Positions 12,476 to 12,648 of a DNA stretch of 64,000 nt are shown here, one piece after another. The translations under genes and the position numbers were made by a program. The notes beneath the pieces are model-generated. The model ran no database searches and was not told where the DNA came from. It saw only the letters and a list, made by a program, of their open reading frames with translations. Source of the stretch: Methanomassiliicoccaceae archaeon (GTDB lineage: Archaea; Thermoplasmatota; Thermoplasmata; Methanomassiliicoccales; Methanomassiliicoccaceae); NCBI GenBank assembly GCA_963728405.1, contig CAVSJV010000017.1, positions 352,001 to 416,000 of the forward strand, in the 5' to 3' direction. Each line of letters starts with the position of its first letter. Position 1 is the first letter of the stretch.

Positions 12476-12648
12476 CCCTAGTGAACTGCCTCTCTGACAG
12501 CGCTCATTGCTTCAACCACCAGAGGCTCGATAGCATCCCCCGCTTGCGCAGGGGGACCTCCCGCTCACCTAGGTTAAAGGGCGGGGGCGAACCCCCGGCC
12601 ATTATGCTCCCCGTGGACCTTCTCCAAAGCCTATTGGGTGCCCAGGGA
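12476..12648 (-). ncRNA. Candidate structured non-coding RNA of about 170 nt (family unassigned)
   Basis: Intergenic. Ends pair (CCCTGG/CTAGGG) and are followed by T5. Internal stems are capped by GGAG, UUCG and GCAA loops, and the many G-U pairs only form on the minus strand. Confidence 0.7.

Follow-up and report, generated by a model that had tools for sequence, protein, structure and literature searches.

The 64,000-nucleotide window analysed here, part of contig CAVSJV010000017.1 (C17) in the genome of a Methanomassiliicoccaceae archaeon (GCA_963728405.1; G000), contains a stretch on its minus strand, from 12648 to 12476, that an initial annotation had described as a single structured RNA. 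We consider it probable (at about 0.8) that this supposed RNA of ~173 nt is a chimera of two unrelated parts: a native element of ~80 nt, placed immediately upstream of a P-loop kinase gene (AAA_18) that we take to be of Fap7/AK6 type (AK6 below), and a 93-nt transposon remnant without genes. Read on the minus strand from 12700 to 12440, the locus comprises, in order, a palindromic element, a TATA-like sequence, the stretch in question, a run of T residues (T-run) and the GTG start codon of the kinase. All of the strings that had been picked out as helices and hairpins are found on the minus strand at the places given for them (Table 1). A transposon remnant lodged in a structured intergenic element mimics a 'new 170-nt RNA' in one genome, and a single orthologous empty site is enough to dissolve it.

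The empty site was found by a search for orthologs over 41 genomes, this genome among them, in which one congeneric genome alone matched the 5' part of the locus (positions 10-87 of a 191-nt query covering the region, at 85% identity). A global alignment shows this ortholog and the window to be collinear, beginning at the promoter and continuing to within the kinase gene, save for one gap of 93 nt, which in the pairwise alignment starts after (C/T)TTAA and stops before TAG. The empty site reads ...CGCCCCCGCCTCTTAA|TAGATTTTTAG... and its counterpart in the window ...CGCCCCCGCCCTTTAA[93 nt]TAGGGTTTTTATC..., so that the site is polymorphic, filled here and empty in the congeneric ortholog. The inserted DNA opens with CCTAGG, closes with GTTCAC and is flanked by TTTAA on one side and TAGGG on the other; it lies between the GC-rich hairpin and the T-run of the native element, directly 3' of the TTTAA at 12578-12574. 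Neither a target duplication nor inverted terminal repeats are seen in the alignment with the empty site, and the insert is free of T-runs of four or more. It is carried by none of 47 other orthologs of the native element upstream of AK6 (AK-type elements).

Both halves of the insert match the ends of a TnpB transposon resident in the same genome, which was searched with the 191-nt query. The left-end (LE) half, query positions 82-136, finds an LE-only copy at C17:420747-420801 (95% identity over 55 nt). The right-end (RE) half, query positions 138-185, is 96% identical over 48 nt to C17:46753-46800, which has a duplicate on contig C9; it recurs at 90-92% on C4, and matches at 85% the 3' end of an open reading frame (ORF) of 407 aa on C3. 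This ORF encodes TnpB (OrfB_IS605, 2.5e-24; Cas12f1-like_TNB, 1.6e-20; HTH_OrfB_IS605, 1.1e-4), and the element around it, G000:C3:159805-161290, serves as our reference, its LE and RE being matched by the two halves of the insert. The upstream flank of the C3 tnpB gene has a homologous left-end palindrome with TTTAAC before it, and the RE stretch is still coding in this intact copy (..GWLKQEAPSEG). Hence the hairpin with the GCAA loop in the window is the LE palindrome, and the last hairpin together with GTTCAC is the RE. In the intact tnpB gene the stretch proposed as a K-loop for L7Ae (TGA-AGCAA-TGA) lies within the reading frame (..GWLKQ..), and snoRNA-type Rfam matches are absent both from the whole window at gathering score and from 12380-12800 at E<=10. 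GTTCAC ends eight of the ten distinct RE copies, whose flanks are unrelated; TTTAAC stands at the same distance before three of the four distinct LE copies, the fourth having TTTATAC. The TnpB family is present in several full or partial copies, other derivatives with LE and RE joined by deletion lie at C4:61487-61823 and C2:318485-318754, and the genome holds 16 TnpB nuclease-domain matches.

Two of these copies lie in notable surroundings. The LE-only copy on C17 belongs to a remnant of 168 nt (G000:C17:420745-420912, L004) ~4.7 kb past the end of the window, directly after the stop codon of TFB and preceded by TTTAAC. Contig C9:3300-6100 duplicates C17:44500-47300 at near identity, RE remnant included, which suggests assembly redundancy or a strain mixture (the contamination estimate is 4.07%).

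Against this background, several of the proposed helices turn out to pair native with inserted DNA, and so they are by-products of the insertion rather than parts of an ancestral RNA domain. AGCAT is native and ATGCT inserted; the 'complementary loops' straddle both DNAs, TTCGCC being the loop of a native hairpin and GGTGAG belonging to the insert; and the first C of CTAGGG, in the terminal helix, is the final base of the insert. The 'two hairpins joined by UUUAA' resolve into a native hairpin, the target TTTAA of the transposon and its left end. With the AGCAT/ATGCT domain, the GCAA hairpin, the 'K-loop' hairpin and part of the terminal helix all coming from the insert or pairing with it, the idea of one structured RNA domain falls. 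The fold of the whole stretch is marginally better than chance and its thermodynamic signal weak: on the minus strand the minimum free energy is -79.4 kcal/mol (z -1.99) and seven of 200 dinucleotide shuffles are at least as stable, while on the plus strand z is -0.24 and 78 of 200 shuffles do equally well. In the minimum-energy fold the LE segment re-pairs with the 3' strand of the native hairpin, which might weaken the latter. The fallback offered earlier, a new stable RNA family, is plausible for the 5' ~80 nt only.

The remnant is an unremarkable representative of a described class, the palindrome-associated transposable elements (PATEs). In Haloquadratum walsbyi (PMC3119063), PATEs are described as terminal-only derivatives of IS605-type elements produced by core deletion, down to 52 bp in length and polymorphic among strains; from Geobacillus, a second report (10.1101/2023.03.14.532601) describes gene-less PATE-like elements whose ends are common to TnpB elements, and notes that it is common for PATEs to encode omega RNAs, which are then acted on in trans. 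The window insert resembles this class in lacking genes, inverted terminal repeats and target duplication; in its subterminal palindromes, which have homologs in the LE and RE of a TnpB element resident in the genome; in being made of fused ends with the core deleted; and in adjoining a fixed short motif at a strain-specific site that is empty in a relative. At 93 nt it is among the shortest (the 52-bp form is known from PMC3119063); its host order, Methanomassiliicoccales, is one for which no description of PATEs was found in the literature; and it differs also in lying inside a conserved RNA-like element, from whose promoter it may be co-transcribed. Such a PATE consists of the fused LE and RE of an IS200/IS605-family TnpB element that has lost its core. 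By the biology of the family, it would have come by single-strand 'peel and paste', with a Y1 transposase acting in trans, and TTTAA would be both the target of the element and the target-adjacent motif (TAM) of the resident TnpB. The insert would thereby document the target and the ends of a TnpB family in Methanomassiliicoccales.

Once the insert is removed, what is left (window ~12641-12574 plus 12480-12471) is predicted to be a small RNA-like transcription unit, and it recurs in the order Methanomassiliicoccales. The kinase protein is present in 79 of 81 genomes of the order, and the upstream 300-330 nt were read for 71 kinase loci. A strict pattern, requiring the palindrome and then the core within 25-130 nt, at most 300 nt upstream of AK6, occurs at 42 of these 71 loci (by group: g1 7/9, g5 3/5, g6 1/1, f3 18/22, f4 4/4, f5 1/1, f6 8/9; zero in f2 0/1, f7 0/13, g3 0/4, g4 0/1 and one more f1 locus 0/1). 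Six of the loci that miss it (L043, L048, L120, L121, L123 and L146) appear by eye to carry the element in a form whose palindrome varies. Loci that lack the element have the kinase gene directly behind another gene; those that possess it have it without exception on the AK6 strand, immediately ahead of that gene. The layout is constant: a GCATGCT-type palindrome, ~10 nt, the TATA sequence, ~35-41 nt, the core GG(A/G)G..AAGG(N)CC(N)CGGGG, a GC-rich hairpin and a T-run. The core in the window is GGAGAAGGUCCACGGGG, its nearly invariant purine-rich form being GGAGAAGGUCC(A/G)CGGGG.

Several features suggest that this unit is transcribed. Transcription is predicted to start ~22-26 nt downstream of the TATA sequence, near 12641-12638, by the usual archaeal spacing, so part of the 5' CCCTGG probably lies outside the transcript. 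Flanked by the native TATA box on one side and, towards a DUF3243 gene, by a divergent TATA-like sequence, ATATAAATA (12703-12694), on the other, the palindrome AGCATGCT is kept across families even where DUF3243 is lacking, and looks like an operator or transcription-factor site. The T-run, found in 41 of the 47 orthologs examined, is a likely termination signal, and TTTTTAT may double as the TATA box of AK6. The sequence of the GC hairpin differs between lineages. In 34 of the 41 orthologs with a T-run, the hairpin of the segment from core to T-run has z < -2 relative to shuffles, and the sense strand folds better than the antisense in 32 of 41 (p 1.5e-5, a value overstated by the relatedness of the genomes); when the hairpin segment is taken by itself, 25 favour the sense strand and 13 the antisense (p 0.14). 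The purine tract and core vary in length by 1-2 nt among AK-type orthologs, and since these indels are not multiples of three the core is not a reading frame. The native element is therefore plausibly an RNA, on the basis of its promoter, its hairpin and T-run, the strand asymmetry and the non-coding indels rather than of covariation.

Table 1. Features of the locus, in window coordinates.
Feature	Position	Strand	Basis or remark
Promoter-proximal element TGTAGCATGCTC with palindrome AGCATGCT	12677-12688	minus	~10 nt upstream of TATA box; GCATGCT-type kept in orthologs
TATA-box-like sequence TTTAATAG	12660-12667	minus	TTTAATA(T)/TTTTATA kept at same place in orthologs
Native 5' part	12574-12648	minus	ends with target TTTAA, 12578-12574; first 7-10 nt may precede true start
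Terminal-helix strands proposed earlier	CCCTGG 12647-12642; CTAGGG 12481-12476; then TTTTT 12475-12471	minus	sequence
Hairpin GGCTTT-GGAG-AAGGTC	12631-12616	minus	sequence
Core 20-mer TTGGAGAAGGTCCACGGGGA	12608-12627	minus	possible mini hairpin UGGA-GAAGG-UCCA, then CGGGG
AGCAT / ATGCT	12607-12603 / 12535-12531	minus	sequence
Native GC hairpin GGCCGGGGG-TTCG-CCCCCGCC (terminator-like)	12580-12600	minus	sequence and ortholog alignment
PATE, terminal-only IS200/IS605 (IS1341/TnpB-type) derivative, 93 nt	12481-12573	minus	clean gap relative to congeneric ortholog; halves match LE and RE
LE part of PATE	12525-12573	minus	subterminal palindrome TCCCCCTGCGCAAGCGGGGGA at 12556-12536
CCCCTGC-GCAA-GCGGGG	inside 12556-12536	minus	sequence
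RE part of PATE	12481-12524	minus	hairpin GCCTCT...AGAGGC plus terminal GTTCAC
GCCTCT...AGAGGC	12526-12488	minus	sequence
Native 3' tail TAGGG and T-run TTTTT	12471-12480	minus	aligns with TAGATTTTT of congeneric ortholog
Kinase gene, first part	12086-12445	minus	Pfam AAA_18, E 5.5e-19; GTG at 12445-12443

The core 20-mer recurs identically at G000:C7:159191-159210, and occurs once per genome in most relatives at such a second locus. In this genome the second locus is RNA-like and single-copy (G000:C7:159184-159247, L156), with an invariant block of ~36 nt and without AK6 beside it. An exact scan for the 20-mer, covering one genome per prokaryotic species, returned 45 stretches, of which 40 are of second-locus type, three are AK-type and two are chance matches in bacterial coding sequence; the 43 archaeal stretches come from metagenome-assembled genomes of Methanomassiliicoccales type, as placed by their titles. 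Across 44 distinct second-locus sequences the invariant block is enclosed by GGAG(C/U)CCCCG ... CGGGGACUCC. RNAalifold draws UGGA/UCCA in this family, and the closing helix with UGGA/UCCA is paired in 91.6% of cells as against at most 59.1% in slid controls, with just two pairs (four cells) changed on both sides. A covariance model built from 30 second-locus sequences, R1, finds one copy in this genome, its own second locus (89.7 bits). In a class-wide sample under stricter filters R1 was found in 2 of 151 genomes, both within the order (f7 0/16; other Thermoplasmata 0/133). The second locus occurs in most Methanomassiliicoccales families, f7 excepted. In other genomes a gene on its own strand, coding for 310-390 aa, ends 3-60 nt before it; in several families this gene has a PIN_4 match (L024, L079 and L017, with 26.7, 23.6 and 21.9 bits at a cut-off of 21.9) and elsewhere (L030, L028) a sub-threshold Hpr_kinase_C match; in this genome the preceding gene is TspO. 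Among PDB sequences no relatives were found for the genes before the second locus. Most Methanomassiliicoccales have two RNA-like loci with a letter-identical 20-mer, one of them locked to Fap7/AK6, and a species available in culture would allow direct tests of both.

Structure in the native element was counted on a MAFFT alignment of 31 AK-type elements, with slid and column-shuffle controls. For the mini hairpin, GGA-loop-UCC, 77.4% of cells are paired, and at most 52.4% when it is slid; its columns are near-invariant, 234 of 500 shuffles equal it, and it has no covariation beyond shuffles in the AK-type orthologs. The GGCUUU/AAGGUC hairpin, on which the comparison with helix 6 had been built, holds just in close relatives and one other genus, its 46.8% of paired cells over the 31 sequences lying within the slid range of 34.9-52.2%. 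For the G-run that follows the core there are two possible partners, a C-run upstream of it and the C-rich 3' arm of the hairpin. Two ideas about the core were tried and rejected. Pairing of the 20-mer with 16S rRNA and its flanks gives a best duplex of -18.9 kcal/mol, weaker than the mean best value of -23.1 for 30 length-matched segments drawn at random from the genome. On the sense strand a likeness to 16S or 23S rRNA was considered, including a possible resemblance to the sarcin-ricin loop; the local alignment scores of the core are within the range of shuffles.

A number of results weigh against the account given so far, and concern both of its parts. For the insert, a Y1 transposase (PF01797) that would mobilise it in trans has no match in this assembly, which is 93.75% complete. 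The five bases 3' of it, TAGGG (12476-12480), also follow the RE copy at C17:46762 (46801-46805), the remaining flanks differing, and the right boundary could lie 5 nt further out; the TAGA of the ortholog at the place of TAGGG argues for the boundary as given. For the native element, RNAalifold returns 0 pairs from the 31 AK-type sequences. A model (P1+P2) that combines a closing helix of C-run and G-run with the mini hairpin pairs in 64.7% of cells, above the slid controls (31-53%), and this value is reached by 327 of 500 column shuffles; the AK-type alignment contains no statistically supported covariation. R1, finally, scores the window element at 16.3 bits (E 0.094), so that the two families are linked by the 20-mer motif and not by a demonstrated common fold. 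The occurrence of TAGGG after two right-end copies could reflect target preference, shared origin or chance. A single fold for both RNA families was considered and dropped, R1 missing the AK-type elements at significance.

The reading put forward initially was of one stable RNA of ~170 nt derived from, or resembling, the Alu domain of the signal recognition particle (SRP) RNA, whether split, permuted or stand-alone. One can draw a hairpin with a GGAG tetraloop, GC-rich hairpins and perhaps a terminal helix, and the minus strand folds better than the plus, but 93 of the ~173 nt are lacking in the ortholog and match transposon ends. Several helices join native and inserted DNA, the GGAG hairpin is not kept in orthologs, its paired cells (46.8%) being those of controls, and of the two hairpins likened to the Alu 5' hairpins one is native and the other lies in the insert. 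The archaeal SRP RNA Alu domain (RF01857) shares with the locus GC-rich hairpins and a drawable GGAG loop, whereas the locus matches no model and its Alu-like core is a mosaic of native and inserted sequence. With Rfam 15 at gathering scores the 64-kb window returned just one tRNA and nothing at the locus, and at E<=10 over 12380-12800 just three chance matches of 18-25 nt to a single hairpin; Archaea_SRP was matched in neither search. Nothing consistent emerged from 12 related loci at gathering scores, or from 20 AK-type loci and the second locus at E<=5. The check that had been proposed, for a separate full SRP RNA, found an intact one at G000:C2:292161-292471 (155.7 bits at a cut-off of 96.5, model positions 1-317), so the locus is not the SRP RNA, nor does that RNA depend on any part of it; RNase P RNA is likewise found on another contig (217.9 bits). 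An SRP origin is accordingly hardly credible. The suggestion, also made earlier, that the 3' hairpin resembles an IS200/IS605 right end stands, the hairpin being such an end and the GCAA hairpin the matching left end, but the domesticated TnpB-type RNA derived from it does not fit a gene-less 93-nt insertion absent from the ortholog. In that proposal the RE hairpin and its flank would act, as an omega-like guide RNA made from the native promoter, with a TnpB encoded elsewhere. The right end of TnpB elements reportedly has a general role in omega RNA (PMC8612924). The last hairpin with GTTCAC is homologous to where the omega RNA scaffold of the resident family would end, the flank standing in the place of a guide; RE corresponds by homology to the tnpB 3' end, at which omega RNAs stop, TTTAA and the flank following it correspond to the TAM and target of the empty site, and the 16 nuclease-domain matches offer a possible partner. 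The window insert differs in keeping 44 nt of scaffold, the RE-homologous remnants elsewhere in the genome having ~165-175 nt; the T-run 5 nt after RE would cut the guide to ~5-10 nt, tnpB is not adjacent, and the presence of the insert in one genome only gives no sign of selection for it. We regard this function as very unlikely.

For the native element our best guess, held at a little under even odds, is a stand-alone small RNA whose invariant core would be a recognition site for a partner shared with the second locus. A general class of archaeal small RNAs comes from intergenic DNA and ends in a hairpin followed by oligo-U. The native element is like them in its own TATA-type promoter, its length of 70-110 nt, its terminal hairpin and T-run and a conserved single-stranded or short-hairpin 'seed', and differs in being strictly syntenic with AK6 and in having its 20-mer letter-identical at a second locus across the order. 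An unlikely though substantial competitor is a cis-acting 5' leader or attenuator of AK6, riboswitch-like with the core as sensor and the hairpin and T-run as regulated terminator, or else acting by promoter occlusion. It would explain why the element is always on the strand of AK6 and directly upstream, with the T-run ~25-33 nt before the start codon in many lineages, why the G-run has alternative partners (upstream C-run or C-rich 3' hairpin strand), and why AK6 follows directly behind another gene where the element is missing (f7 0/13, g3 0/4); yet f6 lineages have 60-120 nt and a separate TATA-like sequence between T-run and AK6, the same 20-mer occurs at a second locus without AK6, and neither the covariation that would define an aptamer nor an Rfam riboswitch match was found. 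A coding reading, in which the conserved core would specify the first residues of a micro-protein (at the second locus MVGKLEKVHGDSP..., and beside AK6 (M)EKVHGE...), is scarcely more than a formal possibility: of 44 second-locus sequences, 36 have an ATG or GTG whose frame runs across the invariant block, and the window and its closest ortholog have a TTG-started frame of 17 codons ending at the TAA of TTTAA, but the block is invariant at all codon positions although the AK6 proteins of the order are just 40-55% identical, the tails are unrelated (13-34 aa), ACG is the first codon in 8 of 44, and indels of 1-2 nt in AK-type cores break the frame. What probability remains for the function of the native element may include a site acting at the level of DNA.

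An effect of the insertion on transcription can be predicted. As the insert has no T-run, a transcript from the native promoter should run on to the old T-run, and the promoter, if it fires, would give a read-through RNA of ~165-172 nt containing the PATE. A more specific and rather improbable proposal is that the native element and the second locus are two members of an RNA class particular to Methanomassiliicoccales, with GGA-GAAGG-UCC-A-CGGGG as the docking site for one partner in late maturation of the small ribosomal subunit. Its leads are positional, one RNA standing always before Fap7/AK6 and the other directly after a PIN-domain gene in several families. Were it true, one member of the pair would in this genome be 93 nt longer because of the PATE, its promoter and terminator still intact, and would represent a natural insertion mutant. 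We know of essentially no charting of the small RNAs of Methanomassiliicoccales. Among the searchable titles and abstracts on small RNAs of Methanomassiliicoccus and Methanomassiliicoccales, none describes either locus. The native element is a modestly interesting new family, it and its 20-mer partner locus matching nothing in Rfam 15.

Some observations concern the neighbourhood and the rest of the genome. DUF3243 was considered as a co-conserved partner gene and rejected: a divergent DUF3243 stands beside the element in just 4 of 24 element-bearing loci with long flanks. Besides the canonical SRP RNA, a second and distinct match to the archaeal SRP model lies below threshold at G000:C2:34943-35209 (L002; 56.1 bits at the cut-off of 96.5, model positions 1-317). 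A weak R1 match at window 54142-54194 on the plus strand (18.8 bits, E 0.019), which lacks the mini hairpin, is probably due to chance. A different tnpB gene, apparently broken, occupies window 61361-62080, with an ORF of 180 aa ending at 61903 and the zinc-ribbon part in another frame. The 7-mer AGCCTCT, through which the initial annotation had tied the locus to the tnpB end near 62081, is indeed shared and is all that this end has in common with the element studied here, no BLAST match joining the two places. The kinase gene itself (11919-12445, minus strand), whose GTG lies ~25 nt past the T-run, shifts frame near 12116, by either a real frameshift or an assembly error: in a tblastn search the 179-aa ortholog protein splits in two, with residues 1-116 in one frame and residues 106-179 in another.

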